Both the position numbers and the translations under genes were made by a program. 23,621 nucleotides of DNA from an uncultured Deferribacteres bacterium (GTDB lineage: Bacteria > Zhuqueibacterota > Zhuqueibacteria > Zhuqueibacterales > Geothermadaptataceae), in assembly GCA_964014485.1 (NCBI GenBank), contig CAXHAT010000128.1, forward strand, positions 1 through 23,621, read 5' to 3'. Numbering within the stretch: the first letter of the stretch is position 1; every line of letters starts with the position of its first letter. Shown one piece after another: positions 7,516 through 23,621 of the stretch. The notes below the pieces were generated by a model. It made no database searches. It saw only the letters and a program-made list of their open reading frames with translations, and was not told the DNA's origin.

Positions 7516-7539
7516 ACGAGTATATCCCCAATGAAATGT

Positions 7540-8313
7540 TTATTGCTGATCTGGCAAAGCCGGCGGTGCCGGTATTTGTCGTTCTTGTTTTATGCCAAGA
7601 AAATATGCGGTTATCCCCGCCGCTGAGACAAGGCCTCCGCCAATGATGAGCCGCCATTTCTTTTGACCGGATTTTTTCCCCAACTGTGGTCTCAGTTCAT
7701 CGAGCATTTGTGCAAAAGCGGGCGAGTCATCCGGGTTGGCGGCATAGGCCGGATTCAATCGTAGAATTTCCTGCACCGCCGTCTTGGCCAGATTGGGATA
7801 GTCGTTCCGAATATAGGCCAGGCTAACCAGTCGGTAAACCTGTATGGCCTGAGCGTCATCGTCAAAGTCTCCGGCAAGGCAAGGCTTCATGCGCTCAATA
7901 ACCCTATCAAAGCGGCCAAACTCGTAGTCTTGCTGCGCCCTTGCCAGGGCTTCGGCGCAAGCGTTCTGTGTTTGAGAAAACCCGGGCGTCAAGCCGGTAA
8001 AATGAAACAGCAGCAGCAATCCGGCGAGTCGCAGGCGCGCTTTGGCAGTGGGGCAAAGATTCGCCCGAAAAGGTGTTTTGAAACGAGCCGCCAATACCAG
8101 CAAGGTCATACCCGGCCCCGCCTGCGCGAGGCTAAACTCCGGCGAGTATCCAAATTCTTTGGGTGTTCGGCGAGACTGGATGCCCGCCTGCGCGGGCATG
8201 ACACCGTCGGTTACGCTCAAATTTTCGCCAGAACCATTTTTAAGCGTTTTGTTACGGATGTTTTTTGCTATCATTTTAGAATCGTTCATCGTCGAAGCCA
8301 TACCGCTTAGCAT
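7540..8313 (-). CDS. Exported TPR-like helical protein with C-terminal membrane anchor and Pro-rich tail (start codon uncertain)
   Basis: Signal-like 'RLRLAGLLLLFHFTGLTPGFSQ', TPR-like helices 'CAEALARAQQDYEFGRFDRVIERMKPCL...YRLVSLAYIRNDYPNLAKTAVQEILRLNPAY', then 'KKWRLIIGGGLVSAAGITAYFL' and 'IPAPPALP'. The 5' part of the ORF contains a palindromic element, so the true start may be further downstream (e.g. ATG at 8109). Confidence 0.75.
   Translation of the reverse strand: MLSGMASTMNDSKMIAKNIRNKTLKNGSGENLSVTDGVMPAQAGIQSRRTPKEFGYSPEFSLAQAGPGMTLLVLAARFKTPFRANLCPTAKARLRLAGLLLLFHFTGLTPGFSQTQNACAEALARAQQDYEFGRFDRVIERMKPCLAGDFDDDAQAIQVYRLVSLAYIRNDYPNLAKTAVQEILRLNPAYAANPDDSPAFAQMLDELRPQLGKKSGQKKWRLIIGGGLVSAAGITAYFLGIKQERQIPAPPALPDQQ
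8105..8202. repeat. GTCAT...ATGAC palindromic element (REP/RPE-like MITE)
   Basis: Ends are GTCATACCCGG...GAGTATCC and GGATGCCCGCCTGCGCGGGCATGAC, and CCCGCCTGCGCG occurs in both arms. It translates to the hallmark peptides VMPAQAGIQ (minus strand) and LDARLRGHD (plus strand). Confidence 0.85.
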
Positions 8314-8318
8314 AATTT

Positions 8319-11075
8319 TTAATTCGAGCCTGTTTGAGCATTCGGGCCCGGCAGATCAGGACACGCACGCTCGTAAGGAATATCGACGCCGACATAGGTC
8401 GCCCATTCTTCCCTGGCCAAATTGCGCGTGCACTCCCCGCAGACTTTTTCCGCGAGAATCTCGGGGCGGGTGATCCAGAAACGCAGGGTTTTATCACCGC
8501 CGCCCGTGACCAGGGTTTCGCCCCCCGGGTCGAAAGCAATGCTCCAAACCCAGGATTCATGGCCTTGCAGCATGATTGGATCGATCTCTTCTTCCAGACT
8601 CCACAGGCGAATAGTCTTGTCCGAGCTTGCTGTTGCAACCCGACGACCGTCCGGACTCAAAGCAATGGCGTTGATCGGTCCGGCGTGGCCGGTTCGCAAA
8701 ATCGGCTCAGAGTTCGGGTCATTCAGCCGCCAAAAACGCAGAACGCCAGCCGTTCCGCCACCAGTCATCAAAACGGAATCTTCCGCGACGAAATGCAGCG
8801 CATTGACCTTGCCGTCGTTCTGAAAGGTTGAAGCATCGCCGGTTTGCGTGTTCCAGAGCTGAACCACGCCGTCATCTCCGGCGGAAGCGAGTTGGTCGCC
8901 CTGAGCGCTGAACGCGAGCGCTCGGACGCGACTTTCGTGCTCAAACGTTTTTTTCAGTTTGGTGTTTGGCTTTGCCGTGTCCCATAGCAAAATCTTGCCG
9001 CTGGCACCCGCTGAGGCCAGCGTTTGAAAATCCGCGCTCTGCGCCAAAGCCCAAACGCGATTCTCATGCCTGTCCGAAGTCGCTTTCCGGCGTAAATTAT
9101 CATCTTTGGTGAATTGCCAGAACATGATGGCGTTATCGTCGCCCGCCGTAATCAGCGAGTTCGTTTTCGAGTTGAAAAGCATGGCGCGAACGCCGGCTTT
9201 GTGGCGGTTGTCACCGGACAGAAACCGCTGGGTGTCCTTGGTCATCAGTTCAAGATATGAAACCGACCCGTCTTCGCCGCCGGTGAAAACGTATTTCCCG
9301 TCGGGTGAAACCGCCAGCGCTCGCACGCCGGAAGAAAGACGCATCACGGTTGGGCCGCCCAGATTTTTGCCATCTCGCTCGCCCAGGGCGTTCAATGAAG
9401 TGCGCAACGCTTCATAAACCTGCTCCTCAAAGCCGCCGCCGTATTTTTCATTAAAAAGCCAGGCTTGCCTTGCCAAGAGAGCGGCGCGTTCGAGCTCAAA
9501 TTGTTCCTGCTGTTTTTGCGATTCAATGGTCAACGAGAGCGCCAAAGTCGTCAAACGCTGGCGGCTCACTTGCGAGATGGTTTTTTCCAAAGAATCGTTG
9601 GCGACGTCGGCTACACCGAGCAAACTATCGGCGCGTTGTTTTTCTTGCGTCGTTTGTCGCTGCGCCTGTCGGGCCTGGTTGGCGGCGCGTTGTTCGGCCT
9701 CGGCAAAAGTGGTCGCACGTTCCGCTTCTTTTTCGGCTTCCAGCCGCGCAAACTGTAAAGCCGTGGTCGAATCATTCAGGTTTTTATTTGCGCTTTGCAA
9801 TTGCTCATTGAGTCGCAGGGTTTCATTCAGCCTTTCTTGCGCAAGTCTTGCATTTTCCTGGGCAGTGTTCGCGGCTTTTGTTCTTTCGCGTGTGGCGTTG
9901 ATGAATCCGAAAAGCAAAACCAGTGAAGTTATCAGCAAAAGAACGACAAAAGCCGACGCCACTTTGACGCCTCGCGGCACGGTCTGGAACCAACTCACCG
10001 GCCAGTGTTCTTTCAGCCAATTGCGGTCGAAGACGTTTTTATAAATACGATTGCGAACATGGAGCTTGCCGTTTTCCCGCCGTACGATGCCGGAAAGCTT
10101 GAGATGGTTTTTCACCGGCGATTGTTCTTCATCGCGCAACGGACGCTTGGTGTAGCGAATTTCCTTGTAGGTCAGCAAGGTTTTGAGCACAGCATCAGCG
10201 CGCTTGGTCAGCATTTCGCCGACAAAGCGCAGGTTGTGATCGTGCTCGCTTTCCGGGCCGAAGAAGGTTTCCGCAACAAGGTCGTTTAAATTGTCTTCGC
10301 GCCATTCGTCACGCGCTCGTTCCGCCATCGCCTGGCACAAGCGTTGGGTGAGGTAAGGATGCCCGCGCGTCCAATGCATGATCAAATCGAGCGTTCGCTC
10401 GTTTTGGTCGCGCGGCAGTCCCAGACCTTCGACCAGCGGCAAGGCTTCTTCAAAAGTGAAATCGGTGACGTCCACCCGTTGCCCGATGTTGAACGGCGTG
10501 CGGTTGGCGTCTTTCATCAAATCGCCGGGGGTGGCGACGCCGATGAGGACGAACGAAAGGCGGGAGAATTCCGGCGTTTGCGCGCGCTTATTGTACAGGT
10601 AGCGGATGGCGGCAAAAAAGTCGTCGGTGAAGTCGAGACTGAGGGTGATATCGATTTCGTCGATGAAAATCGTCACTTGTTGCTCGATGTTTGCCAGAAC
10701 GAATTCCTGGAAAAAACGAATCAAACGATGAGAAACGCCCAGATTCGCATTTGAGCGCCACCACTCGTCGATATCCGCATCCAACGTCAGCTCGTCGGCG
10801 ATGATGGTCAGCAAAGTGACGTACCATGTTTCGGCGTCGACTTGCGTACCGACCTGGTTGAGATCGATGATGATGCAACGCTGTTCTTCTTTTTTCAGTT
10901 GCGCGGCCGTTCGCACCATCAGACTGGACTTCCCGACCTGGCGCGCGGAAAGGACGTAGGCGAACTCTCCTTTTCGGCAGAGTTGGAATAAGTCCTTGTC
11001 CGCGTTACGGGCCACGTAAAGCCCGACGCCCGGGCGGATGGTGCCGCCGACGGTGTATGTGAGCGTATCAGCCAT
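8319..11075 (-). CDS. AAA_35-type STAND P-loop NTPase - transmembrane helix - coiled coil - WD40 beta-propeller
   Basis: N-terminus 'YTVGGTI....LYVARNAD', Walker A 'LSARQVGKSS', Walker B 'TIFIDEID', plus 'RTPFNIG' and 'WTRGHPYLTQRLC'. TM 'VASAFVVLLLITSLVLLFGFI' is followed by an Ala/Gln/Glu-rich coil, about 7 WD40 repeats and a C-terminal 'C.RNL.REEW..Y......C P' motif. The ATG at 11075 overlaps the upstream stop (ATGGCTGA), so it is preferred to the track start at 11102. Confidence 0.9.
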   Translation of the reverse strand: MADTLTYTVGGTIRPGVGLYVARNADKDLFQLCRKGEFAYVLSARQVGKSSLMVRTAAQLKKEEQRCIIIDLNQVGTQVDAETWYVTLLTIIADELTLDADIDEWWRSNANLGVSHRLIRFFQEFVLANIEQQVTIFIDEIDITLSLDFTDDFFAAIRYLYNKRAQTPEFSRLSFVLIGVATPGDLMKDANRTPFNIGQRVDVTDFTFEEALPLVEGLGLPRDQNERTLDLIMHWTRGHPYLTQRLCQAMAERARDEWREDNLNDLVAETFFGPESEHDHNLRFVGEMLTKRADAVLKTLLTYKEIRYTKRPLRDEEQSPVKNHLKLSGIVRRENGKLHVRNRIYKNVFDRNWLKEHWPVSWFQTVPRGVKVASAFVVLLLITSLVLLFGFINATRERTKAANTAQENARLAQERLNETLRLNEQLQSANKNLNDSTTALQFARLEAEKEAERATTFAEAEQRAANQARQAQRQTTQEKQRADSLLGVADVANDSLEKTISQVSRQRLTTLALSLTIESQKQQEQFELERAALLARQAWLFNEKYGGGFEEQVYEALRTSLNALGERDGKNLGGPTVMRLSSGVRALAVSPDGKYVFTGGEDGSVSYLELMTKDTQRFLSGDNRHKAGVRAMLFNSKTNSLITAGDDNAIMFWQFTKDDNLRRKATSDRHENRVWALAQSADFQTLASAGASGKILLWDTAKPNTKLKKTFEHESRVRALAFSAQGDQLASAGDDGVVQLWNTQTGDASTFQNDGKVNALHFVAEDSVLMTGGGTAGVLRFWRLNDPNSEPILRTGHAGPINAIALSPDGRRVATASSDKTIRLWSLEEEIDPIMLQGHESWVWSIAFDPGGETLVTGGGDKTLRFWITRPEILAEKVCGECTRNLAREEWATYVGVDIPYERACPDLPGPNAQTGSN

Positions 11076-13299
11076 CGAGATGTTGTCCAAAATAGTCCGC
11101 ATACAGTTTACAGCGCGGCTTCATCTTGCCGTTTTCCCGGTGAACTAGCCCGGCGCCACGCAGCCGGAAGAAAACGCGCTCATCCTGGCACGTGTTGTTT
11201 TGAATGATCTGCCTCAAGCCGTGCAGCAGCTTTTCATGATCGATGAGATGAAAAAGGTAGTAACGCAAATTATCGCCAAACGGGCCGTCGTCATGGCCAG
11301 CGGTTTTAAAAAAGTCTTTCACCATGAACGCGCCACTTGCGATTAAGTAGAGCGCCTTGCGCGTCAGGTAAGGATGACCTCCCAACAACTCGGTTAGCTC
11401 AGCCAATTCATCCTTCGTGAACGGCGCATCGTGCAACCGGTTGAGCGTTTCGATATGTCGAAGAGTGAAGTCGGACAATTCGATTTTGACGCCGACATTG
11501 AACGGCGATTGATAAGGGTTTTCGATAAACAGATAAGGCTCGGTCGAAGTGACGAGCGCGAGGTCGAGCCTGCTCCAAACCTGGCTCGACGCTCTTTTGT
11601 TGTGCCAGCCGCGCAGCATGCCAAAAAAATCGTTGCGAAAATCCTTGTCGAAAATACTCTCGACCTCGTCCATCGCCAGAAGCAACGGCTCGGTCACTGT
11701 ATTCAACACATGGCGTTGCAGGTAACGCAGACATTTTTGCGTATAACCGGCGGCGGATTGCCAATACTCATCAACGCGATCTTCGATTTCGAGCTCATCC
11801 GAGATGTAGGTGCAGAATTGACGAAAAAATGTGTCTGCGTCCTTCATAGTGGAATCATCAAAGAATTGAAAGTCGAGAAAGGCGACGTGCTTATCGGCGT
11901 CTCTCGCGGCGCTCATTACACGATTGAGCAAAGAGCTTTTACCCATCTGACGCGGCGCTTTGATGGTGATCGTGACGCCCTGCTGGGCGATGGCTTGCAG
12001 CGCAACGTGGTCGCCGTTACGTTCAACATAAAATTGGGATTCCGTCCGCATTGTGCCTTCCGGCATTTCCAACTGAATCGGTTGCGCCGAAGGAAGCGGC
12101 TCATCATACTTCCTTTCTTCTTTTTGAGTAATTTCATGCCTGGATTCTTCCACCAAAACCGGCTCGCCGCCAGACACGACGCGCAGCAATTCATCGATCA
12201 GTCGTCGGCTATCATTTTCATCTTCCCAAAAGGCGCAGTTGATGTGATCTAAGTAAACGCTAATTGGGTAGGGCAGATCATCACGGAAAGCCACACGAAT
12301 CGGGAGAATCAGGGGGCGTCCGTTTCGTTTGGCAAGCTCATTCGATTTCTTAATTTCATACGCCACCATTTCACTGTTGATAGATTTTTTGGAAAGGAGA
12401 ATGATAATAAAATCGGAATTTTCGAGTTCAGAATCGATGCGTTCCGCCCATTTCGTCCCAACAAGCATCGCCTGGTCAATGAACACGCTGTGCTCCTGTT
12501 TCAAGGCGTCGTAGAGTCTTAGGGCCAGCGGTTCGTCCGGTTCATGATCACGCTTGTAACTCAGAAAAATACGCTTTTTCGGCTTTCGTTCGGCCTTGAT
12601 AATAGTGTTGTTGATCAACAGTTGAGGTGTGTCTTGCTCCCCAATATTTTCCATATCAATTTGCAGGCAACCGAGCTCAAAGGCGGTTTTGATGTCCCTG
12701 CCAAATCCAAGAGCCTGATAAAACGCGGCAGCAAAACTCACCGACGCTGAGTCTGAAATGGCTCTCGACATGCCGACGACATAGTCAATGTTTTGCGCAA
12801 CGCCTTCTGCTTGCTTTTCGGAATAACAGGCATTCAAAACCACGCATTTCACATTGTCCTTCAGAACTTGAAACAATTTAGCAAAAGCGTCCGACGGCAC
12901 GGGATGTAAATCGCCGGAATCGTCTTCTAACAGAATCTCACTTTCCGTGCTGCCGTGCCCGCTAAAATGTACGATATCCGGTTGATGGCGTAATAGATGG
13001 CCCTGTAAATCGCTTACGCGCACCGCCCATTCCTGCTCGAGAATGAACTTGTCATGTAGCGCCGATTGCCGCAATGCTTGCTTGATTTCGCGTATCTCGC
13101 CGTCCAATCTGAGCTGCTCTGTACCGCGCGGATTGGAAGCGATGAAGAGAACTGAAATTGGTGATACTCCTTCGCTTCCAACGCTCGCTCCATCTAAAAG
13201 CAATTCGTTTTTAGAATCGGATACTTCGCTCCCGACAATCTTTCGATTCGAGTTCATACGCTTTCTAAATGTATAATTGTTATATACTTGATGATGCAC
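11068..13299 (-). CDS. CHAT (caspase-like) - TIR - AAA_35 STAND NTPase fusion protein
   Basis: CHAT 'VLFIASNP...LRLDGEIREI...DIVHFSGHG...CVVLNACYS' (nt 13152-12616). TIR 'RIFLSYKRD...VFIDQ...GTKWAERIDSELENSDFIIILLSKKSINSEMVAYEI' (from ~12573). AAA_35 'PEGTM....FYVER', Walker A 'IKAPRQMGKSSL', Walker B 'LAMDEVE', 'QSPFNVG', 'GGHPYL'. The start may instead be the ATG at 13257. Confidence 0.92.
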   Translation of the reverse strand: MHHQVYNNYTFRKRMNSNRKIVGSEVSDSKNELLLDGASVGSEGVSPISVLFIASNPRGTEQLRLDGEIREIKQALRQSALHDKFILEQEWAVRVSDLQGHLLRHQPDIVHFSGHGSTESEILLEDDSGDLHPVPSDAFAKLFQVLKDNVKCVVLNACYSEKQAEGVAQNIDYVVGMSRAISDSASVSFAAAFYQALGFGRDIKTAFELGCLQIDMENIGEQDTPQLLINNTIIKAERKPKKRIFLSYKRDHEPDEPLALRLYDALKQEHSVFIDQAMLVGTKWAERIDSELENSDFIIILLSKKSINSEMVAYEIKKSNELAKRNGRPLILPIRVAFRDDLPYPISVYLDHINCAFWEDENDSRRLIDELLRVVSGGEPVLVEESRHEITQKEERKYDEPLPSAQPIQLEMPEGTMRTESQFYVERNGDHVALQAIAQQGVTITIKAPRQMGKSSLLNRVMSAARDADKHVAFLDFQFFDDSTMKDADTFFRQFCTYISDELEIEDRVDEYWQSAAGYTQKCLRYLQRHVLNTVTEPLLLAMDEVESIFDKDFRNDFFGMLRGWHNKRASSQVWSRLDLALVTSTEPYLFIENPYQSPFNVGVKIELSDFTLRHIETLNRLHDAPFTKDELAELTELLGGHPYLTRKALYLIASGAFMVKDFFKTAGHDDGPFGDNLRYYLFHLIDHEKLLHGLRQIIQNNTCQDERVFFRLRGAGLVHRENGKMKPRCKLYADYFGQHLDG
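12616..13152 (-). repeat. CHAT-coding direct repeat, copy A (537 bp)
   Basis: Gap-free alignment with 15394-15930; 156 of 179 aa identical by manual count. Confidence 0.92.
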
Positions 13300-14526: not shown

Positions 14527-15987
14527 TTATTGAGTTTGAGAAGAATTACCAATAAGTACACAAACAGCTCGAACTGATCTTGTAGAATGAGCGGGAGTAT
14601 GCTGATATAATGCATCTACAAATGAAACAGTCCAGCAATTCCCTTCTTCACTTTTTGTAGATGTCCAAATATCTTTTTGTGTCGCATCAAACAAAGGACT
14701 GACCGCCAAATTGGCATTTTTCTTTTCAGATTCCAAGAGAGCAAGAGCTTCAGGAAGAGTTGGTAAACGCCAATTCTTATATCCGGCAAACTTAACCCTT
14801 CTCAAGCTTTCAACATATACCACAGCTTTCTCAAAAGACAGGGGCAGAGACGATCCCGATTGTTGCCATACTAAATCCGTCGCTTCATCAATCACAACTT
14901 CCTGATTATTGAAAGACTCTACGCGGTATTTGTGCTGGATTCCGTTTCCTTCACGGTTAATAACTTTATCATACAAGTTGTTGTTTTTTATTATTTGTTC
15001 AACTTGTCCTGATGACAGCAGAGTATGTTTTGGCGAATAAATCGAATCGGTTTCACTATTTTGGTTTTTATGAGGTGATTGAGGCTGTTTGCCCGGATTA
15101 AATTGAAGATATTGATCGTCAGAGTACTCTCTTTGTCGTGGTGAATAAGAGGCATCTTTCGCTTCTGGACCTGAAAAAGAATCCTTTGATGAGAGGGACT
15201 TAATAGGGAAAGACCCACTGTATATATAAAAGACTACAGTCAAAGTTAGAAGCAATGCCCCCACGACACCCGCATACCATTTCCAATTTTTCTTTTTCCC
15301 GTCTTTTCCTATTTCTGTATGATCTGAGCCAATAGTTCTTTTGAGTTCCATTGTCGCGACAGGATTAAATGTTTTGTGCGTTCCGTCTTTCGCCAACAAT
15401 TGGGGCGTGTCTTGCTCACCTAGTATTTCCAAATCAATTTGCAGGCAACCCAGGTCAAAAGCTGTCTTGATATTCCGGTCAAACCCTAGAGCTCGGTAAA
15501 ACGCCATGGCAAAACTCACTGAAGCTGAGTCTGAAATCGCTCTCGACATGCCGATGACGGAGTCGATATTCTGCGCGATGGCATGTCCCTGTTGTATCGA
15601 ATAACAGGCGTTCAGAACCACGCATTTCACATTGTCTTTGAGTACTTGAAACAGTTTGGCCAAAGCGTCCGAGGGCACGGGATGCAAATCGCCTGACTCG
15701 TCTTCTAACAGAATTTCGCTTTCCGTGCTCCCGTGCCCGCTAAAATGCACAATGTCCGGCTGATGACGCAAAAGATGCCCCTGCAAATCGCTGACGCGCA
15801 CCGCCCATTCCTGTTCGAGAATGAACTGGTCTCGCAACGCCGATTGTAGTAATGCTTGCTTGATCTCGCGTATTTCAACGTCCAGTCTGAGCTGCTCTGT
15901 GCCGCGCGGGTTGGAAGCGAGGAAAAGAACTTTTAACGGCTTGGAGCGTTCTTGTTGCTCCGTGCCGTCGTTTTTCTTCATTGCCAT
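14527..15987 (-). CDS. CHAT (caspase-like) - transmembrane helix - DUF1566 (Lcl C-terminal, C-type-lectin-like fold)
   Basis: CHAT with 'HFSGHG' and 'VVLNAC'. TM 'KKKNWKWYAGVVGALLLTLTVVFYIY'. DUF1566 motifs 'VVIDEATDLVWQQSGS', 'FAGYKNWRLPTLPEALALLE' and 'IWTS.......WTVSF..........VRAV'. Confidence 0.88.
   Translation of the reverse strand: MAMKKNDGTEQQERSKPLKVLFLASNPRGTEQLRLDVEIREIKQALLQSALRDQFILEQEWAVRVSDLQGHLLRHQPDIVHFSGHGSTESEILLEDESGDLHPVPSDALAKLFQVLKDNVKCVVLNACYSIQQGHAIAQNIDSVIGMSRAISDSASVSFAMAFYRALGFDRNIKTAFDLGCLQIDLEILGEQDTPQLLAKDGTHKTFNPVATMELKRTIGSDHTEIGKDGKKKNWKWYAGVVGALLLTLTVVFYIYSGSFPIKSLSSKDSFSGPEAKDASYSPRQREYSDDQYLQFNPGKQPQSPHKNQNSETDSIYSPKHTLLSSGQVEQIIKNNNLYDKVINREGNGIQHKYRVESFNNQEVVIDEATDLVWQQSGSSLPLSFEKAVVYVESLRRVKFAGYKNWRLPTLPEALALLESEKKNANLAVSPLFDATQKDIWTSTKSEEGNCWTVSFVDALYQHTPAHSTRSVRAVCVLIGNSSQTQ
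15394..15930 (-). repeat. CHAT-coding direct repeat, copy B (537 bp)
   Basis: Gap-free alignment with 12616-13152 at an offset of 2778 bp. Confidence 0.92.
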
Positions 15988-16047: not shown

Positions 16048-17331
16048 CTACTCCGCCATCGCGTCTTCATAAAGCATCTTCATCATTTCCTCCAAATCCG
16101 TGACTTCCGACTCGACCGGATCATGACGCGACGGCGTAATCTGCGGCGCAGCCGTACAATCGCGGCGCGGCGCGTCTTTAGTGAGCAATGAACTCAACGG
16201 CGTCGCCGCCTGCACGCGCTCGCTCATAAAAGGAATCTCGCCATTATTATCACGTGCAAATCTGAGCAAAATGGTTTTCAGCGTTGACGTATGATCAAAA
16301 ACTTCATGCGAAACTGATCGTTTGCCGATCCACGGCGAAACCACAATGGTCGGAATTCTTACGCCGAGGCTTTTGCGCATATGCGGATATCTGTCTTCAA
16401 CAGTCGGCGGTACGACATGATCATAAAAGCCGCCATGCTCATCGTAGGTAACAACAAAGAGCGTCTTTTCCCAGTTCGGGCTGCGCAATAAGGCGTTATA
16501 AACCTGGCTCACCAAGGCCTGCCCTTTTTGCACATTCTTCGGCGGATGGTCGTCGTTGCCGGAGCGGCTGAGAATGCCGAAGTTGGGGTCGATCCAGGCG
16601 ACGGACGGCAATCTGCCTTTCTTTGCATCGAGAAAAAACGACTGCATATTGTCGGTGAGCGGCTTAATCATGGTTTTCACTTTGCGATGCTGCTTGAAGA
16701 ACAACAGCGACGCCACGTCGGCGGCGTAATGCTTGACGCTGACGTTCGACAGAAACTCGAAGATCGTTTTTAAATCATAGGATCGGAAGGGAATGGTCTT
16801 GCCGGGATTAGCCGTTTCACCGTCCGACGTGCCCGCCATGGCGTATAGACGATTCGGCACCGTCGGCCCGGCCAGCGAGCAGAACCAGCGGTCGCAGACG
16901 CAGAACTGCTCGGCGAGATGATCAAACGCGCGCAACTGAGCGCCGGTGTGATAGCCCATAACCTTGCCGGGATCGTTCTTCTCTGCTCCCTTGACCAAGG
17001 TATGCGCTTTTTTACTCTCCATAAAGTTTCTGACGAATCCGCCGTTGTTGTCTTCGAGTTGGATTTGCGTGTCCTGGTAAGAATGCGCCGGATCCCAAGG
17101 GAAGATCAGGAAGTCATCATCCAGCGGTTGCGGCGTGTAGACTTTGTCTTTGTAAATGTTTCGGTATTCATCGGAGGCTTTCAGTCCGTCGATTTCATCG
17201 CGGCCTTTGCCGCCCATGGATTCAGGCAATGACAGGTAGCCGAGCATGTGGTCGAAGGAACGGTTTTCCAGCATGAGCACGACGATGTGGTCGATTTCGT
17301 CAAGCTTCGCAAGATTCAGATCGGTCATCAT
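16048..17331 (-). CDS. Phospholipase C / acid phosphatase AcpA-family phosphoesterase (alkaline phosphatase superfamily), no export signal
   Basis: Motifs 'IDHIVVLMLENRSFDHMLG', 'DPAHS', 'FCVCDRWFCSLAGPTVPNRLY', 'DDHPP', 'VTYDEHGGFYDHVVPP', 'LGVRIPTIVVSPW' and 'FDHTS'. RBS-like AAGGGG just upstream of the ATG. Confidence 0.92.
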   Translation of the reverse strand: MMTDLNLAKLDEIDHIVVLMLENRSFDHMLGYLSLPESMGGKGRDEIDGLKASDEYRNIYKDKVYTPQPLDDDFLIFPWDPAHSYQDTQIQLEDNNGGFVRNFMESKKAHTLVKGAEKNDPGKVMGYHTGAQLRAFDHLAEQFCVCDRWFCSLAGPTVPNRLYAMAGTSDGETANPGKTIPFRSYDLKTIFEFLSNVSVKHYAADVASLLFFKQHRKVKTMIKPLTDNMQSFFLDAKKGRLPSVAWIDPNFGILSRSGNDDHPPKNVQKGQALVSQVYNALLRSPNWEKTLFVVTYDEHGGFYDHVVPPTVEDRYPHMRKSLGVRIPTIVVSPWIGKRSVSHEVFDHTSTLKTILLRFARDNNGEIPFMSERVQAATPLSSLLTKDAPRRDCTAAPQITPSRHDPVESEVTDLEEMMKMLYEDAMAE

Positions 17332-17416
17332 GATCCCCTTGTGTTGGTAGTGACTCGCTTTTTTGACTGCGCTTTGGCTGGCAAGTCATTTGGCGGGAGG
17401 CGCAGCCTTAATAATG

Positions 17417-17444
17417 AATATAGGACAATAAGAGCTTGTGTCAA
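17417..17444 (-). promoter_or_regulatory. Candidate sigma70-type promoter for the minus-strand block
   Basis: On the minus strand: TTGACA (17444-17439), 16 nt, TATATT (17422-17417), about 85 nt upstream of the phosphoesterase start. Confidence 0.55.
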
Positions 17445-17783
17445 CGAAATCCGCGTCGAGTACGCAGACGACGGATCACGCTTTTCCGTACGACAAGCAT
17501 TATCGTTTGATTTCCCGGCGAGTACAAAAATATGCTACATGAGCGTTGAACGCTATCTAAAAGCTTACTCTGGTCCATCTAAAAAAGTCATGGATTTTAT
17601 CAGATTTCTTTGAGATATTCTCAAACCTTCCGCAACGGACATTCTACGGGACAAAAAACGCCGATCTCTTTGGGATCAGACGGCAAAAAAAGCGTCCCAA
17701 AGAATACAAGGGGTTATTGCATATTCTTCAGTGGGCGGCTTCATTTTAAATCCCTTTGTCGAAAACTTCATCGGTGATCCAAA

Positions 17784-20231
17784 ATGTTTAACGTGAGCAT
17801 ATCCATGAAAAACGGCAAAGCGCATTTTTTATTTTCAATCCTGTTTACGCTTGGCTTCGCGATCCAGGCGCTTTTGAGCCAAAGCAGCCAGGTGCCTTAC
17901 GGCGCGCGTCCGGCGGGAATGGGCGACGCTTTCGTCGCGCTTGAGAACGACGCCAATACGTTGTTTTGGAATCCGGCGGGCATGTCATGGCTTGAGCACC
18001 ATGAACTCATTACCATGTACGGCAATCCCCTCGGGGTGCCCGGATATTCCAATCGGATGCTGGGCTACGTCTTTCCGGTCTCTTCCCGCCTTGCCCTTGG
18101 CGCCAGCGGCTTCTTTGACGGCGTTCAGGATCTGGATGACAACAGTCTGGGTCTTGATTTCGGATGGACCATGCTGCAATTGTCATCAAGTTACAAGTTT
18201 ACGGACAAGCTTTCCTTTGGCCTGACCGGCAAGTTCGTACAGATGAGCGCTTCGGAAGACTTGCAGCAGCAAGGGAGTCCCGTCGGCTTTGGCGCAGACC
18301 TGGGGGCGTTTTACAAAACAAATAAATGGCGCTTCGGAGCGATGTGGCAAGACGCGGGCGGCATGCGCATCCGTCATGCAGCCGGAAGCGCCGGCGACGC
18401 AACAACGCCGGACTCGTTGCGCAGTTCCTGGGAAACCGTACGCGATCAACTCTTTCGTCTCGGCGCGGCCTGGTCTCCGCGTTCGCCATTGACATTCTCG
18501 GCGATGATTACGCCCGGAGATCGCATCCACTTCGGCGCTGAATACTGGATGTTGAACGACCTTGTCGCCGTGCGCGCGGGCTTGCAGCACGACGTCTACG
18601 ATACGCCGTCGCCGGAAACGATCTACGCCGCCGGTTTCAGCCTGAAAAAGTCTATCGTGCGCATCGATTACGCTTACGTTATGCCGCCAGTGCTGCCAAA
18701 CAGCTCTCGTCTGTCTTTGTCTCTGGCCGTTTCCTTCCGCCGCGCCAAAGTCAAGTTAAGCGATGAGCGTTTCGACAGGCTGTTTCCCAGCCGTTACGGC
18801 GACTATCAAGCACTTTCGCTCGGTCATGTGACGCTTGCAAACGAAGAAAAAACGGAGATCCTAGCCAGTGTCGAGTTTTTCATACCAGCCTTAATGGAAA
18901 AGGCGGAAACTGTGATCAGTAACAAGACCATGGCGCCAGGCGAGACAAGCACGATTCATTTCAGTCCGAAAAGCCTGCTTCGAAAAAAGGCTCTGGCCGT
19001 CGACAATCCACGGGGCGCTAACGCCGAAGTTCGGGTGCTTTATGATCAAGGCGCTGATGCCAATTTCAATAAGAAGCACAAGCGCAGATATAGAGTCCAG
19101 CTATTAAAAGCCGGGGCCGTCTCCTGGAAAAACGGACCCGGAGCTGCGGCCAGTTTCATATCACGCGATGCTCCAATTGTGCAGCAATTCGCACGCGACG
19201 TTCTCGATCCTTTCGCGGATGATTTATCAAAAGTCGAAGGCTCCGACAATTTACACAAAGCGGCTATCTTGTTTGACGCGCTTGGGCGTTTGGACATTCG
19301 CTACTTTCCTGACCAGGAGAAACCATTCGTTTCCATGGTCGCCGACACCAGCGGCGACGCCTTTGACGTGATTCACTATCCAAGCGAAACGCTGACGCGC
19401 TATGGACGCGGCGATTGCGACGACCTGACCGTGCTTTACGCTTCGCTGCTGGAATCCGTCGACGTGCCGACGGCGCTTGCTTTTTCACCAGGGCATATCT
19501 TTCTCTTGGTCGACAGCGGACAAAAGCCCTACGCCGCTGAAGAATTGTTTGACGATCCGTCCGTCTACCACGTCCGCGACGACAGGTTGTGGCTGCCCGT
19601 TGAAGTCACCATGATCGGCCAAAACTTTCATCAGGCAGTCATCAATTCCCGGATCAAAGACCTGCAACAGATGGTTACCGTAGAAAAAGCGTGGACGCAG
19701 TTCCGCCCCGGTTATCCGGCCCAAGAAAACCGGTCGCTGCCCGCGCCGCAACGCTCGAGCATCGAAACGCTCTATCACGCTGATCTCAAATGGCTGCAAA
19801 CGCGCGGCTTGAGCGCCGAGCGAGAAAACCTGGAAAAAACGCTCGCGACGCAGCCCGATCATCTCACGACTTTGAAAAAACTGGCGTTGCTCGAACGACT
19901 CGAAAACAACCGACAGCGCGCGAAAGAACTCTATCTGCGGCTTACTGAATTGGAAACCGACGTTCCGGAGCATCTTTTCGAATTGGGTCGTCTGCACAGT
20001 GCCGACGGTGAATTTGATGCGGCGGAAAGACAAGCGCAAGCTTTGCAAACGCGCTTTCCGCAGCAGCCGTATGCGCTGGTGCTGCGGGCCATAGCTTTCT
20101 ACGAAGCAGGCAACGATCAGGAAGCCCTGCAGGTTTATAGCCAGGCCAAACAGCTCGACCCGGAAGCGGCGGTGGTGAAGGAATACAAAGTGGACGTCTG
20201 GATCAATTCACGCAATGAACAAGGGAACTGA
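17784..20231 (+). CDS. PorV/PorQ(FadL)-like outer-membrane beta-barrel fused to an Ig-like region, a transglutaminase-like (Cys-His-acidic) domain and TPRs
   Basis: Signal peptide (start possibly ATG 17805) and 'YGARPAGMGDAFVALENDANTLFWNPAGMS'. Amphipathic beta-strands run to 'RIDYAY...RLSLSLAVSF'. Then 'IHYPSETL...GDCDDLTVLYASLLES...PGHIFL...LWLPVEVT' and C-terminal TPRs ('ALQVYSQAKQLDPE'). Confidence 0.85.
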   Translation: MFNVSISMKNGKAHFLFSILFTLGFAIQALLSQSSQVPYGARPAGMGDAFVALENDANTLFWNPAGMSWLEHHELITMYGNPLGVPGYSNRMLGYVFPVSSRLALGASGFFDGVQDLDDNSLGLDFGWTMLQLSSSYKFTDKLSFGLTGKFVQMSASEDLQQQGSPVGFGADLGAFYKTNKWRFGAMWQDAGGMRIRHAAGSAGDATTPDSLRSSWETVRDQLFRLGAAWSPRSPLTFSAMITPGDRIHFGAEYWMLNDLVAVRAGLQHDVYDTPSPETIYAAGFSLKKSIVRIDYAYVMPPVLPNSSRLSLSLAVSFRRAKVKLSDERFDRLFPSRYGDYQALSLGHVTLANEEKTEILASVEFFIPALMEKAETVISNKTMAPGETSTIHFSPKSLLRKKALAVDNPRGANAEVRVLYDQGADANFNKKHKRRYRVQLLKAGAVSWKNGPGAAASFISRDAPIVQQFARDVLDPFADDLSKVEGSDNLHKAAILFDALGRLDIRYFPDQEKPFVSMVADTSGDAFDVIHYPSETLTRYGRGDCDDLTVLYASLLESVDVPTALAFSPGHIFLLVDSGQKPYAAEELFDDPSVYHVRDDRLWLPVEVTMIGQNFHQAVINSRIKDLQQMVTVEKAWTQFRPGYPAQENRSLPAPQRSSIETLYHADLKWLQTRGLSAERENLEKTLATQPDHLTTLKKLALLERLENNRQRAKELYLRLTELETDVPEHLFELGRLHSADGEFDAAERQAQALQTRFPQQPYALVLRAIAFYEAGNDQEALQVYSQAKQLDPEAAVVKEYKVDVWINSRNEQGN

Positions 20232-20236
20232 AAACG

Positions 20237-21115
20237 ATGCGAAATAAATATAGCGGTTGCGTCTTCTCGTTGTGTCTGCTTGCACTCGCGCCGACAACCG
20301 GCTTGACGCAAAACAACGGCGGCGCATATCTGAAAAACTACTTTGCGCGCGAAGTCTCCGACGGCTTGCTGATCAAGCTCTTTCGCGTGCAAAAAGAGCT
20401 TGAAAACAGCGCGCGCGGCGACGATCCGCGCACCGGGCTTTTTCTAAATCTCTGGAAAATCAAGGCTGATCTGAACGAGCCGCCGGAGTACTTGACCGCA
20501 ACCGAGGATCAAGACAATAACTTTCCGCGTTGGTCCCCCGACGGCAAGCGCATCGCCTTTCTGCGCGGCACGCGCGCCACCAAACTCTGGCTTATGGACG
20601 CCGACGGCGGCAATCAGCGCGCTTTGACCGACGGCTCCGGCTCGGATCGATTCCCGCTGTGGAGCCCCGACGGCGAACGGATTGCTTTCGTGCGCAACGG
20701 CGCTTTGAGGATCGCTTCGATTGCCGCAGGAAAAGTTGACGCCGTTTCTATAAAAGAACGCGTTTATCAGCCCTGCGCTTGGTCGCAGGACGGGCGCGGT
20801 CTTTTGCTCGCCGTACAGGAACGCGACGAAACCTGTCAACTGATGCAGTTAAACGTGGATTCGTTGACAACGGTGATCGTCAACCCGGAACCGTCAAAGG
20901 ATTATAAAATTTTCACCGACCTGCGCCTGCATCCGAGTGAAGATCAAGTGCTCTATGATCAGTTCTTCGGCAGGCGCTGGGACGTGATCCTGCGTCACGT
21001 CGACGACAAATCGGGCGCGACAATTTCCGAATCCTGGTCCACCGATCTCAATCCCGATTGGTCGCCCGATGGCGCGTACATCGTCTATGCTTCAACACGT
21101 AAGCCCAGGCAGTGA
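20237..21115 (+). CDS. Exported TolB-like PD40 beta-propeller protein
   Basis: Signal peptide and PD40 repeats 'FPRWSPDGKRIAF', 'FPLWSPDGERIAFVR', 'CAWSQDGRGLL' and 'NPDWSPDGAYIVYAS'. It starts 5 nt after the upstream stop and overlaps the next gene by GTGA. Confidence 0.88.
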   Translation: MRNKYSGCVFSLCLLALAPTTGLTQNNGGAYLKNYFAREVSDGLLIKLFRVQKELENSARGDDPRTGLFLNLWKIKADLNEPPEYLTATEDQDNNFPRWSPDGKRIAFLRGTRATKLWLMDADGGNQRALTDGSGSDRFPLWSPDGERIAFVRNGALRIASIAAGKVDAVSIKERVYQPCAWSQDGRGLLLAVQERDETCQLMQLNVDSLTTVIVNPEPSKDYKIFTDLRLHPSEDQVLYDQFFGRRWDVILRHVDDKSGATISESWSTDLNPDWSPDGAYIVYASTRKPRQ

Positions 21116-22920
21116 AAACGATGACGAGAAAACGAAAAATCCTGATTCTGGCCTCGAATCCGGGGGATTTGGCGCGGCTGCGTTTGGACGTGGAAGTGCG
21201 CGAAATCAGCGAAGGCCTGCGTCGCTCGCGTCATCGCGAAGCCTTTGAAATTGTACAGCAATGGGCCGTCGGGCCGCGCGAAATGCGGCGCGCACTGCTT
21301 GACGTCGAGCCGGACGTCGTGCATTTCTGCGGGCACGGCGACGAAGACGGCTTGCTGGTTGAAGGAGATTCCGGCGATTTCATCATTATGCCAAACGACG
21401 CCCTCGCCGACCTGTTTTCGTTTTTTGCCGACAAAATCGAGTGCGTCGTCCTCAACGCCTGTTGGTCGCAGGCACAGGCTGAAGTGATTGCCGAGCATAT
21501 CGCTTACGTCGTCGGCATGAGCAAGCCGGTGAATGATCGCGCCGGAATCGAGTTCGCCGTCGGCTTTTACGACGGTCTGGGCGCTGGGGAAGATTATGAA
21601 GCCGCTTTCAGGCTCGGCAAGAACGCCGTGCACGGCTTCAACCTGCCTGATCACGAAGTGCCGCAGCTTATTGTCAACAAAGCCGCGGCCAGAACGCTGC
21701 GAGAGCGCAGAGAAGAAACTCAGGTCAAGACAGAAACAAGCGCAGAGGCGGCGAACGGCGGGAAGAGCCTGGATAAAAGATGGCTGATTGGCGTCCTGCT
21801 CGCTATTGTTCCGGCGGGCATAGCGGCCTTTGAATACATTCGTTCCGAGTTTTTTAAACCTTCGGCCCTGAAATATCTTAGCATTGCGGAACCGCTGCAA
21901 TTGCCCGACACCCTTTATCTCGCGCAGGCGACGGTCTATCGTGATTCATTCATGCAGGTCAAGCTGACCGGCGATTCTTCCAAACGCGCAACCGCCGATC
22001 TATCATTCTCACTCACTGCCGGTGACGCGCAGACACAGACGCGCAAGTTGCCGGTGATGAATGATTTCAAGGGTGGAAAAAGTATCAAGACGCCTTGGCC
22101 TGCGCTCGATTCGCTCGCTCGATTGATCGATAGACCGACAGACGCTCGCGCCGAATTGAAATTGGAGATTTCTTCCTTTGAAGACGACGCAGTCGAAGTT
22201 GTCGATTTCAAAAGCGACAGCATGGTGCTCGTGCCGAGAAATTATCTTGATCTCAGCGAGGCGCGGCATGTTTGGGCATTTGTGACATCGGAAATCGCCT
22301 TGTTTGCCAAAGTTGCGCGAGAGATTGAAGCTGCGCTCGATTCGCTTTATGACTCTGAAGACGGACGTTTCTTTGGGGTGAATTTCATCAAAGCGGTTGC
22401 CGTATGGCAGTGGCTGCAAGCGCAAGACCTAAACCAGAAACCAATTGGGCGCGGGGCGCAATACCTGCAATATCCGCCGGAAACGCTGGCGGCCAAAGCC
22501 GGAACCGGCAACGATCTGGCGGTTTTGTTCGCCACGCTTCTGGAAGCAATGGACGTGGACGTCGATTTCGCCGTTGTCGGCGGCAGGGACATTTTGATCT
22601 ATTTTGAAACGGACATTCAGGACAAGTCGCATCCGCTCTACCCCCAAAGCGACGACGATCCCCTGGCGACTATAGGGCCGCTCGACAAGGTTTGGCTGCC
22701 AGTGAATTTGAATGCATTCCATGAGACGTTTTACGAAGCGTGGTTTGTGAGCAGGCTGTTTAATAAGCGGCACGAGATTGTTGCGGCTGTGGCGCAGTCC
22801 ACGAATCAGGTTTGGATCGATGAGTTATTAGAACCGAACCTTAATTCAATTTCAGTATCGCAGATGAAACAGAATGTCGAAGTGGAAATCGCGGACTGGC
22901 GGCGGAGTCTTGCGCAGTAG
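21112..22920 (+). CDS. CHAT (caspase-like) - transmembrane helix - Ig-like region - catalytically inactive transglutaminase-like domain
   Basis: CHAT 'ILILASNP...LRLDVEVREI...DVVHFCGHG...CVVLNACWS'. TM 'KRWLIGVLLAIVPAGIAAFEYI'. Then 'LQYPPETL....GTGNDLAVLFATLLEAMD...GRDILI...VWLPVNLN'. Start is GTG 21112 or ATG 21121. Confidence 0.85.
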   Translation: MKTMTRKRKILILASNPGDLARLRLDVEVREISEGLRRSRHREAFEIVQQWAVGPREMRRALLDVEPDVVHFCGHGDEDGLLVEGDSGDFIIMPNDALADLFSFFADKIECVVLNACWSQAQAEVIAEHIAYVVGMSKPVNDRAGIEFAVGFYDGLGAGEDYEAAFRLGKNAVHGFNLPDHEVPQLIVNKAAARTLRERREETQVKTETSAEAANGGKSLDKRWLIGVLLAIVPAGIAAFEYIRSEFFKPSALKYLSIAEPLQLPDTLYLAQATVYRDSFMQVKLTGDSSKRATADLSFSLTAGDAQTQTRKLPVMNDFKGGKSIKTPWPALDSLARLIDRPTDARAELKLEISSFEDDAVEVVDFKSDSMVLVPRNYLDLSEARHVWAFVTSEIALFAKVAREIEAALDSLYDSEDGRFFGVNFIKAVAVWQWLQAQDLNQKPIGRGAQYLQYPPETLAAKAGTGNDLAVLFATLLEAMDVDVDFAVVGGRDILIYFETDIQDKSHPLYPQSDDDPLATIGPLDKVWLPVNLNAFHETFYEAWFVSRLFNKRHEIVAAVAQSTNQVWIDELLEPNLNSISVSQMKQNVEVEIADWRRSLAQ

Positions 22921-23026
22921 GTTTGTGCGAAACTGTATTGTGCGCGACTTACTACTTCAACTCCAAGTTCCATGCCGTCTTTTACAGATTAAAGACGATT
23001 CCGAACAAAGCCCAGAGAAAAAGCTT

Positions 23027-23621
23027 ATGAATAAGTATACTATACTAACCGGATGGCTGTCGCTATTGTTATTCGTGTCAGGATTTGCACAAAACCCGGC
23101 CTGGACCACTTTTACTACGAATGACGGTCTGGCGAACTTCCATGTTTTGGCCATTGCAGAAGACGGCAACGGTGCGCTCTGGTTTGGTACAATTGATGGC
23201 GTGAGTCGCTATGACGGCCAAAGCTGGACCACTTTTACCAGAGCTGATGGTTTGGCTGACAACCAGGTCACCGCTATTATAGAAGACAGCAATGGCGCGC
23301 TCTGGTTTGGTACAGAAGGCGGCGTGAGCCGCTATGACGGTCAGAACTGGACCACCTTTACCGAGGCGAACGGCTTGGCTGGCAACAGGGTTTTTGCCAT
23401 TGCACAAGACCGCAATGGCGTACTCTGGTTTGGTACAAATAATGGGGTGAGCCGCTATAACGGCCAAAGCTGGACCACCTTTACCACGGCTGATGGTTTG
23501 GCTGACAACGACGTTAACGCCATTTTCGAAGACAGTAAAGGCGCGTTGTGGTTTGGAACATCGTACGGCGTGAGTCGCTATGACGGCCAAAGCTGGACCA
23601 CTTTTACCAGAGCTGATGGTT
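23027..23621 (+). CDS. Exported two-component-regulator propeller (Reg_prop) repeat protein, N-terminal part (runs off the window)
   Basis: From ATG 23027: MNKYTILTGWLSLLLFVSGFAQNPAWTTFTTNDGLANFHVLAIAEDGNGALWFGTIDGVSRYDGQSWTTFTRADGLADNQVTAIIEDSNGALWFGT... There is no stop before the window end. It is absent from the ORF track. Confidence 0.9.
   Translation, partial: MNKYTILTGWLSLLLFVSGFAQNPAWTTFTTNDGLANFHVLAIAEDGNGALWFGTIDGVSRYDGQSWTTFTRADGLADNQVTAIIEDSNGALWFGTEGGVSRYDGQNWTTFTEANGLAGNRVFAIAQDRNGVLWFGTNNGVSRYNGQSWTTFTTADGLADNDVNAIFEDSKGALWFGTSYGVSRYDGQSWTTFTRADG
23102..23621 (+). repeat. 123-bp (41-aa) coding tandem repeat, at least 4.2 copies
   Basis: TGGACCAC(T/C)TTTAC recurs at 23102, 23225, 23348, 23471 and 23594. 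The 55-bp segments 23198-23252 and 23567-23621 are identical. Confidence 0.93.

Follow-up and report, generated by a model that had tools for sequence, protein, structure and literature searches.

A triad-less transglutaminase-like module on a membrane-anchored CHAT protein as a candidate periplasmic receiver beside its barrel-borne paralogue

Why should one bacterial operon encode the same envelope module twice, once with a complete catalytic triad and once with none? This question is raised by a stretch of 23,621 nucleotides from an uncultured marine Deferribacteres bacterium (contig CAXHAT010000128.1 of assembly GCA_964014485.1; the window, in what follows), in which the open reading frame (ORF) list and the translations place three tightly packed plus-strand genes at 17784–22920. 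The first, P0001, codes for an outer-membrane barrel protein carrying a transglutaminase-like module; the second, P0002, for a β-propeller; and the third, P0003, for a CHAT (caspase-fold) protein in which a single transmembrane (TM) helix is followed by a triad-less homologue of that module. An earlier note on this DNA had described an active and a dead paralogue, and this observation has been confirmed as a whole, all the motifs that it quoted being present in the translations at the positions it gave. Its interpretation, that the dead domain pairs across the periplasm with the active one or its substrate and switches on CHAT, finds support only in part, namely for the pseudoenzyme and the topology. 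The answer to which we would give an even chance is that this is a derived envelope signalling operon, in which the dead module would be a periplasmic receiver, equivalent to the CHASE2 domain of related operons, that controls the CHAT protease.

The homology of the two modules is far beyond chance. BLASTP aligned residues 530–624 of P0001 with residues 452–549 of P0003 at 32/99 identities (32%, E 3e-9), and when 1.84 billion representatives were searched by phmmer with the P0003 periplasmic part, 296 proteins came up at E ≤ 0.001, many of the matches spanning query residues ~10–320, i.e., the whole ~300-residue module. The identity between P0001 and P0003 is 21% over the module and 32% over the core, and the two are, to judge from their sequences, distant paralogues and no recent tandem duplicate. 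A model of the P0003 module built from a 146-row alignment is confident (predicted local distance difference test, pLDDT, 90.4; predicted template-modelling score, pTM, 0.88), and the exhaustive structural search VIA divides it in two. Module residues 13–134 form an immunoglobulin (Ig)-like sandwich (Z 10.1 to 8u01_A and Z 10.0 to residues 473–586 of 7tvz_E), the matches at Z ~10 being GH2 Ig-like domains and the β-barrel of protein 4.2. For residues ~134–359 the top match is TglA (9crn_A; Z 8.6, root-mean-square deviation 3.6, 140 aligned residues), and further matches are the putative protease 3kd4_B (Z 8.1) and the putative cysteine protease 3isr_A (Z 7.9); these core values, 7.9–8.6, are middling by VIA's own calibration and in accord with the Pfam evidence and the motif pattern. 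When 134 family modules were scanned singly against Pfam (E ≤ 0.01), Transglut_core (PF01841) was found in 54, DUF553 (PF04473) in 35 and Transglut_core2 (PF13369) in three, with one member each at most for other families. Together, the structural matches and the family-wide Pfam results support a transglutaminase-like α/β core fold for the module family, as the earlier note had supposed. Other searches returned less: Foldseek with the P0003 module gave mainly Ig-like sandwich matches, the transglutaminase-like ones being seen only by exhaustive VIA, and with the complete P0001 model mostly matches to the barrel and to the tetratricopeptide repeats (TPR). The module sequence profile had no match among Protein Data Bank (PDB) sequences at E ≤ 10; P0001 alone reached E 0.057 against Transglut_core, short of Pfam significance, and P0003 alone matched none of the Pfam transglutaminase families.

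The two modules differ in their catalytic residues. In P0001 the triad is C545, H571 and E607, where C545 is the sole cysteine of the protein and each of the three columns is at least 90% conserved in the module alignment. Among 270 modules pooled by similarity to both window modules, and hence a biased set (P0005, identical to P0003, was dropped), the triad columns read C-H-E in 254, C-H-D in four and otherwise in 12. The P0001 module is thus a predicted Cys-His-Glu transglutaminase-like enzyme, putatively a protease or a transamidase, in keeping with the active triad that had been claimed for it. For P0003 the replacements C>G, H>D and E>N had been proposed; the loss of the triad stands, and the second replacement stands in part, the residue at the His column being R492 in the ungapped BLAST alignment and D493 in the MAFFT alignment, neither of them His. 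The core strand of this module has no His, and the cysteines of P0003 lie at residues 73, 111 and 117 only; since the periplasmic part is devoid of cysteine, it cannot be a cysteine enzyme, and since the triad is gone while the fold is kept, the module is a pseudoenzyme member of that fold.

This loss is not peculiar to one strain. The only full-length relative of P0003 is P0006 (44–47% identity, 99% coverage), in which the triad columns read G/N/N and the motifs YLQYP.ETL, G.GNDLAVLFAT and WLP.NL are kept; since so distant an orthologue is also dead, the strain-specific decay that the earlier note had named as a refutation is not borne out. In a FastTree phylogeny of 261 modules (nine fragments dropped; trees midpoint-rooted), a clade with support 0.978 is made up of P0003, P0006, P0247, P0246 and P0251, each of them Cys-less and anchored by an N-terminal TM helix. 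Because P0006 lacks the triad too and P0003 sits in this clade of Cys-less, inner-membrane-anchored modules, the loss is judged to be old and stable. In P0246 and P0396 (49% identity to each other), a Peptidase_C14 caspase domain precedes the TM helix in the place of CHAT, and therefore two caspase-fold families, CHAT and Peptidase_C14, are found fused to this module lineage.

The genes that surround barrel-module genes elsewhere give the second line of evidence. For this comparison, locus ORFs were annotated with phmmer seeds, and Pfam confirmed the labels on 43 neighbour proteins and on eight in contig C152 of the window's own genome. A CHASE2 gene starts at most 2.5 kb downstream of 47 of the 59 distinct barrel-module genes having at least 2.5 kb of downstream DNA; the 12 exceptions include L085, L126 (CHASE2 upstream), L147 (CHASE2 further downstream) and L005, a locus of the window type. 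On the other side, an FG-GAP or Reg_prop propeller gene ends at most 600 bp upstream in 53 of the 61 genes having at least 2.5 kb of upstream DNA, and a FlgD_ig-type tail is present in 7/8 Pfam-checked Reg_prop neighbours. There are two main layouts: one consists of one or more FG-GAP propellers, the barrel-module-TPR protein, a small protein of ~170–200 aa and a CHASE2-guanylate cyclase; the other, of a Reg_prop propeller, the barrel-module-TPR protein and a CHASE2-CHAT, CHASE2-TIR or CHASE2-sigma-54 activator protein. The Pfam-checked CHASE2 outputs were CHAT (nine, including L017), guanylate cyclase (six), TIR (two), sigma-54 activator (one) and histidine kinase (one). Lineages lacking the barrel have the module fused to Reg_prop repeats in a single protein. 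According to their record titles, the loci come from Latescibacterota, Gemmatimonadota, Neomarinimicrobiota, KSB1, Caldithrix, Cytophagia, Spirochaetota, Nitrospirae and others, and members of the operon family are at present named 'PorV/PorQ family protein', 'tetratricopeptide repeat protein' or hypothetical. The window's genome has the canonical operon too, on contig C152 (L207; 8502–14106, minus strand), with a barrel-module protein of 733 aa (no Pfam TPR match), a 197-aa protein and an 832-aa CHASE2-CHAT protein, and CHASE2 occurs at five other places in that genome. P0001 and its L005 orthologue fall inside a 58-member clade (support 1.0 in a 134-module tree, midpoint-rooted) made up mostly of CHASE2-partnered genes. 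These comparisons show the window to be a rare variant of a widespread, unannotated signalling operon composed of propeller, barrel-transglutaminase-like and CHASE2 genes, and it is because CHASE2 sensors hold that operon position elsewhere that the dead module is read as a CHASE2-equivalent receiver. The earlier suggestion of a receptor controlling CHAT is supported just as far as CHASE2 sensors with CHAT or other outputs hold the same position.

Some further observations have been made on these loci. The small protein between barrel-module and CHASE2-cyclase genes (~165–230 aa) is present at 57 loci (e.g., L010, 6684–7208; L099, 10159–10734); among six that were checked with Pfam, four had no match and two a weak TPR_6 match, one of them also TPR_19, and its place in the window is taken by the PD40 propeller P0002. 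At L126 (104–2419 and 9291–10736) and L032 (1738–3192), the barrel-module gene is flanked by genes for a CHASE2-histidine kinase and a response regulator-sigma-54 activator; there, the envelope module is wired to a two-component system. Facing the canonical operon of L207, at 2033–8484 on the plus strand, lies a group of transglutaminase-like genes, coding for two tandem DUF3857 proteins (the first also with Transglut_core) and then for a 754-aa TPR-module protein.

The window-type arrangement itself has been found once more. Among 159 loci gathered with the barrel-module alignment, only L005 repeats the gene set and order of the window, with a barrel-module-TPR protein (55% identity), a PD40 protein (54%), a CHAT-TM-module protein and a Reg_prop protein with FlgD_ig and Por_Secre_tail. 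No second full-length P0003 was found in 167 genomes of the phylum, a tally that takes in the unpublished G158 and G162; the strong matches cover the CHAT part only.

The features on which the argument depends are collected in Table 1, and their arrangement suggests where each part would lie. The model of full-length P0001 made with AlphaFold has a pLDDT of 87.0, and its barrel belongs to the PorV/PorQ family (PorV_fam NF033709, 97.8 bits against a cut-off of 90); by Foldseek it resembles FadL (3pgu, E 2.3e-9) and the PorV chains 6h3i_F (E 8e-9) and 8gl6_F (E 6.6e-9) from the system for type IX secretion (T9SS). It is neither PorV nor PorQ itself, as the equivalog scores are far under the cut-offs (44 vs 250 for PorV and 25.7 vs 220 for PorQ). 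In barrels of the FadL/PorV kind both ends lie on the periplasmic side, and for this reason the module and the TPRs of P0001 are placed in the periplasm, the active domain being presumably tethered to the outer membrane. The translation of P0003 has no N-terminal signal peptide. Its CHAT dyad is intact, and over the 120 aligned sequences (119 matches and P0003) the dyad columns are His in 120/120 and Cys in 118/120. From the order of domains, P0003 would be a one-pass inner-membrane protein with CHAT in the cytoplasm and the dead module in the periplasm. The topology that the earlier note had drawn, with an active domain tethered to the outer membrane, a dead domain in the periplasm and CHAT in the cytoplasm, agrees with the presence of a signal peptide and a PorV-type barrel in P0001 and of one TM helix in P0003.

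Table 1. Positions in the window of the features of P0001, P0002, P0003 and P0004, with the evidence for each.
Feature	Position	Strand	Evidence
P0001, 815 aa: signal peptide, PorV/PorQ-like outer-membrane barrel, β-sandwich, transglutaminase-like core, TPR	17784..20231	+	ORF, translation
PorV/PorQ/FadL-type β-barrel, aa 36-320	17889..18743	+	NF033709 E 8.9e-28; Foldseek
Ig-like β-sandwich of P0001 module, aa ~323-445	18750..19118	+	model strands E323-440
Helical linker and transglutaminase-like core, aa ~450-640	19131..19703	+	C-H-E conservation, Pfam
C-terminal TPR repeats of P0001, aa ~657-815	19752..20228	+	TPR_16 E 2e-8, TPR_2 E 4.7e-6; helical repeats in model
P0001 triad codons C545, H571, E607	19416-19418, 19494-19496, 19602-19604	+	motifs HYPSETL...GDCDDL, PGHIFL, WLPVEVT
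P0002, 292 aa: secreted PD40 (TolB-like) β-propeller	20237..21115	+	PD40 E 1.6e-20
P0003: CHAT, TM helix, dead module; 602 aa from GTG 21112 or 599 aa from ATG 21121	21112..22920	+	translation
Short N-terminal CHAT (caspase-fold) domain	21112..21681	+	Pfam CHAT 31.3 bits vs cut-off 24
CHAT dyad codons H75, C117	21334-21336, 21460-21462	+	CHAT alignment
Single TM helix, aa 225-243	21784..21840	+	hydropathy scan, mean Kyte-Doolittle (KD) 2.14
Ig-like β-sandwich of dead module, aa ~253-374	21868..22233	+	model; VIA matches
Triad-less transglutaminase-like core, aa ~386-556	22267..22779	+	VIA matches; no Cys after residue 117
P0003 triad columns G466, R492/D493, N532	22507-22509, 22585-22590, 22705-22707	+	motifs QYPPETL...GTGNDL, GRDILI, WLPVNLN
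P0004 (partial, contig end): secreted Reg_prop β-propeller, signal peptide from M at 23027	23027..23621	+	Reg_prop E 1.2e-28

With the parts so placed, a mechanism may be pictured in which P0001 would supply an outer-membrane barrel with a periplasmic Cys-His-Glu enzyme, protease or transamidase, and its TPRs; P0002, a periplasmic PD40 propeller; P0004, the product of a fourth gene, a Reg_prop propeller that the T9SS probably exports and the barrel retains; and P0003, an inert paralogue of the P0001 module on the outside and a CHAT protease with an intact dyad in the cytoplasm. The dead module would sense the state of the barrel-enzyme/propeller assembly, or the ligand or product of that assembly, its candidate targets being the active module, the TPRs, the PD40 propeller, the propeller-cargo tail and the enzyme product. 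The signal would then cross the membrane and switch the CHAT protease, probably via a changed oligomeric state, by analogy with the induced oligomerisation of other caspase-fold enzymes. In the canonical operon, CHASE2 would sense the periplasm, and a cyclase, a kinase, a transcription activator, TIR or CHAT would answer in the cytoplasm. The homology, the fold, the loss of the triad and its conservation, the conserved operon and the CHASE2 genes at the equivalent position elsewhere are shown by the comparisons; the topology, a receiver role for the dead module, an outside-in direction of signalling and the activation of CHAT are what we infer for the window. More tentatively, and as a possibility that we hold at clearly less than even, the whole family might form an envelope-surveillance system of the FCB group and neighbouring phyla, in which a surface event leads to a messenger, transcription or death output. 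Its parts would be a surface propeller that is a T9SS cargo, the PorV-like barrel-enzyme-TPR protein and an inner-membrane receptor; phage contact, neighbour contact or a polymer ligand might trigger it, and CHAT and TIR would be death effectors. The CHASE2 of the window's receptor would have been replaced by a dead enzyme paralogue, and contact between enzyme and pseudoenzyme across the periplasm would fire CHAT.

Several points weigh against the reading of the dead module as a receiver. The equivalence with CHASE2 is one of gene position, with no shared structure, and the count of 47/59 includes related genomes, as the loci are not phylogenetically independent. The clade may not be uniformly dead, since the triad columns of P0246 and P0396 read Ser-His-Asp and these proteins may still be hydrolases. 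P0247 and P0251 have short cytoplasmic N-termini only and no output domain, and therefore an inner-membrane-anchored module can exist without a signalling target. The arrangement is rare, being confined to the window and L005, with 0/166 among the other genomes of the phylum. Finally, a frameshift near residue 395 splits the L005 CHAT-TM-module gene (10521–12337) into two frames; P0006 and P0395, which come from other assemblies and are near-identical to the L005 protein, are intact, and the break reflects either a mistake in assembly or a gene that has recently become a pseudogene.

Among the alternatives to a receiver, the one that survives best is that the dead and the active modules pair across the periplasm, as a heterodimer or with the dead one as a decoy substrate, and that this pairing switches CHAT on or regulates the enzyme. 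We consider it rather unlikely, although the domains are homologous, are encoded two genes apart and are predicted to share the periplasm, and although both orthologues of the dead module keep the fold-defining motifs around the lost triad. Pairing would also be compatible with the replacement of CHASE2. However, the modules are only 21% identical, and as the lineage of the dead one, anchored in the inner membrane, is old and separate, recent duplication gives no ground for pairing; moreover, the canonical partner CHASE2 bears no homology to the enzyme, and the pairing of like with like is thus no requirement of the system. A three-chain prediction with the P0001 module, P0002 and the P0003 module gave scores of 0.17 and 0.01 against a mark of 0.32, and speaks neither for nor against the pairing.

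Control might instead run from inside to outside, an event at the CHAT end causing the dead module to sequester or release the enzyme or its substrate and thereby directing the processing of propeller proteins. There is precedent for such a connection in the Lap system, in which, according to PMC4359373 and PMC3032545, a receptor of the inner membrane is paired with a transglutaminase-like cysteine protease of the periplasm, and a dead paralogue would be a natural mimic of substrate or enzyme. Yet CHAT, its dyad intact, is an effector protease and is not known as a ligand-sensing input, and the cytoplasmic domains found at the equivalent position (cyclase, kinase, sigma-54 activator, TIR, CHAT) are typical outputs. 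In addition, the LapG/BTLCP family was not listed for P0001 (E ≤ 0.1) or for the 134 family modules (E ≤ 0.01), in searches where the HMMER filters lose weak matches. Altogether, inside-out control seems improbable to us. A similarly low standing is given to the idea that the dead module has no signalling role, being a structural or anchoring remnant or part of a decaying gene, with CHAT controlled in some other way. The frameshifted copy in L005, the rarity of the arrangement and the clade members without an output domain all agree with it; on the other hand, the 602-aa frame is open in the window, as are P0006 and P0395, the motifs of the module are conserved despite an overall identity of 44–47%, its model is confidently folded (pLDDT 90.4), and a Cys-less clade with several architectures argues for a retained function. 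Lastly, that the P0003 module is still an enzyme by means of non-canonical residues is barely credible, because, despite the nucleophile plasticity that Ser-His-Asp in P0246 and P0396 reveals within the clade, it has Gly at the nucleophile position, no Cys in the periplasmic part and no His in the core strand, and P0006 reads G/N/N.

The receiver reading, preferred over these, is also favoured by a second protein of the same build. At 14527–15987 on the minus strand, the window encodes another one-pass membrane CHAT protein, P0392, with the order CHAT-TM-Lcl_C (DUF1566-like); over 261 aa, the stretch from its CHAT domain through the linker to the TM helix has 38% identity with the counterpart in P0003 (E 4e-49). 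As this protein shares its chassis with P0003, the periplasmic domain on a CHAT-TM chassis looks swappable. An overlapping minus-strand pair at 8319–13299, composed of CHAT-TIR-AAA_35 (11068–13299) and AAA_35-WD40 (8319–11102), looks like a conflict or cell-death system of the STAND type and brings the CHAT-related genes of the window to four.

As for the propellers, P0002 had been called TolB-like, and the label is right for the fold and wrong for TolB itself: it is a PD40-repeat propeller only, since its score against the TolB model of the Tol-Pal system (TIGR02800) is 74.2 bits against a cut-off of 343. The tight coupling of this gene between the two module genes, also noted earlier, is clear from the spacing: a 5-nt gap separates it from P0001, and the junction with P0003 is either another 5-nt gap (ATG start at 21121) or a 4-nt overlap (GTG start at 21112). 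The sequence TGAAAACGATG, with stop, 5-nt spacer and start, is identical at both junctions (20229–20239 and 21113–21123), and ATG 21121 is the more likely start of P0003, giving 599 aa as in the database entry P0005. The fourth co-directional gene, P0004, begins at about 23027 and is cut by the contig end at 23621; its start was deduced from the N-terminus of the L005 orthologue, which is a protein of 1010 aa with the T9SS C-terminal domains FlgD_ig and Por_Secre_tail. Elsewhere in the window, at 721–7515 on the minus strand, lies a gene for a protein of 2264 aa with FG-GAP/ASPIC repeats and, at its C-terminus, a T9SS sorting domain; it is on the opposite strand and 10 kb off, and at other loci the usual partner upstream of a barrel-module gene is an FG-GAP propeller. 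A divergent phosphoesterase gene lies 450 bp away from P0001. In scans of 17250–23621, sigma-70 promoters (six found vs 3.1 expected) and terminators (eight found vs 8.7 expected) were at chance level. The public sequencing runs listed for the locus are three DNA runs of one marine-metagenome study, with no RNA run listed, and have no bearing on expression.

If the receiver reading is true, the window would be a plain example, in bacteria, of a caspase-fold protease that has enlisted a pseudoenzyme as its sensor outside the cytoplasm. The comparison also exposes a large unannotated operon family and gives CHASE2, for which we know of no established ligand, a conserved set of partners, namely a β-propeller protein, in many cases bearing a tail of the T9SS type, and a transglutaminase-like enzyme anchored in the outer membrane. 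What CHASE2 sensors sense, and how bacterial CHAT and TIR effectors are triggered from outside the cytoplasm, are thereby made testable.

Among the known systems compared here, as they appear in the sources cited, none has a transglutaminase-like enzyme fused to a barrel, and none has a caspase-like protease with a pseudoenzyme as its ectodomain. The erythrocyte protein 4.2 also has a transglutaminase fold that has lost its nucleophile and serves in binding or as a scaffold; it is, however, a eukaryotic cytoskeletal protein, and the match to 7tvz_E is to its Ig-like barrel (473–586) and not to its core. CHASE2 sensors are like P0003 in their equivalent gene position beside barrel-module genes (47/59 loci) and in having CHAT among their outputs. 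CHASE2 has been characterised as a receptor domain that lies outside the cell and is accompanied by TM helices (PMC8195603); P0003, in contrast, has no CHASE2 (PF05226) match at E ≤ 0.1, a reversed domain order with CHAT N-terminal and one TM helix, and a transglutaminase-like pseudoenzyme as its sensor. No described precedent for the architecture of the window was found in full-text literature searches, with supplements outside their scope, or in passages of PMC11506125 and of the Aravind-group survey PMC8195603. Another example is DdvA, a TPR-CHAT anti-sigma factor of Myxococcus xanthus, which is likewise a single-pass CHAT protein and for which a role in turning a signal from the periplasm into a response in the cytoplasm has been proposed (PMC11506125). 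In DdvA, however, TPR-CHAT is periplasmic and a zinc anti-sigma domain is cytoplasmic (PMC11506125), whereas in the window CHAT would be cytoplasmic and the dead module periplasmic, the operon has no sigma factor gene, the Pfam scan of P0003 gave no anti-sigma family match and CHAT precedes the TM helix. The T9SS offers two further parallels: in PorP-PorE-PG1035, the gene for an outer-membrane barrel of the PorV/PorP/PorQ kind has as neighbours those for a cargo bearing the T9SS C-terminal domain (CTD) and for a periplasmic TPR/propeller protein (PMC9143113), and in PorA-PorY a T9SS cargo tail is the ligand of an inner-membrane sensor (PMC12152298). As described there, the barrels are without a fused transglutaminase-like enzyme and the sensor is a histidine kinase. 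Finally, the LapD-LapG system of Pseudomonas fluorescens differs from the window, as described, in that the periplasmic domain of LapD is no dead LapG paralogue and LapD senses c-di-GMP inside the cell and signals outward; the window has instead a cytoplasmic CHAT protease and an enzyme fused to a PorV-like barrel, with no LapG/BTLCP match seen. What the two would share is an inner-membrane protein whose periplasmic domain is tied to a periplasmic cysteine enzyme of transglutaminase fold, together with a surface protein held at an outer-membrane pore (PMC4359373, PMC3032545).

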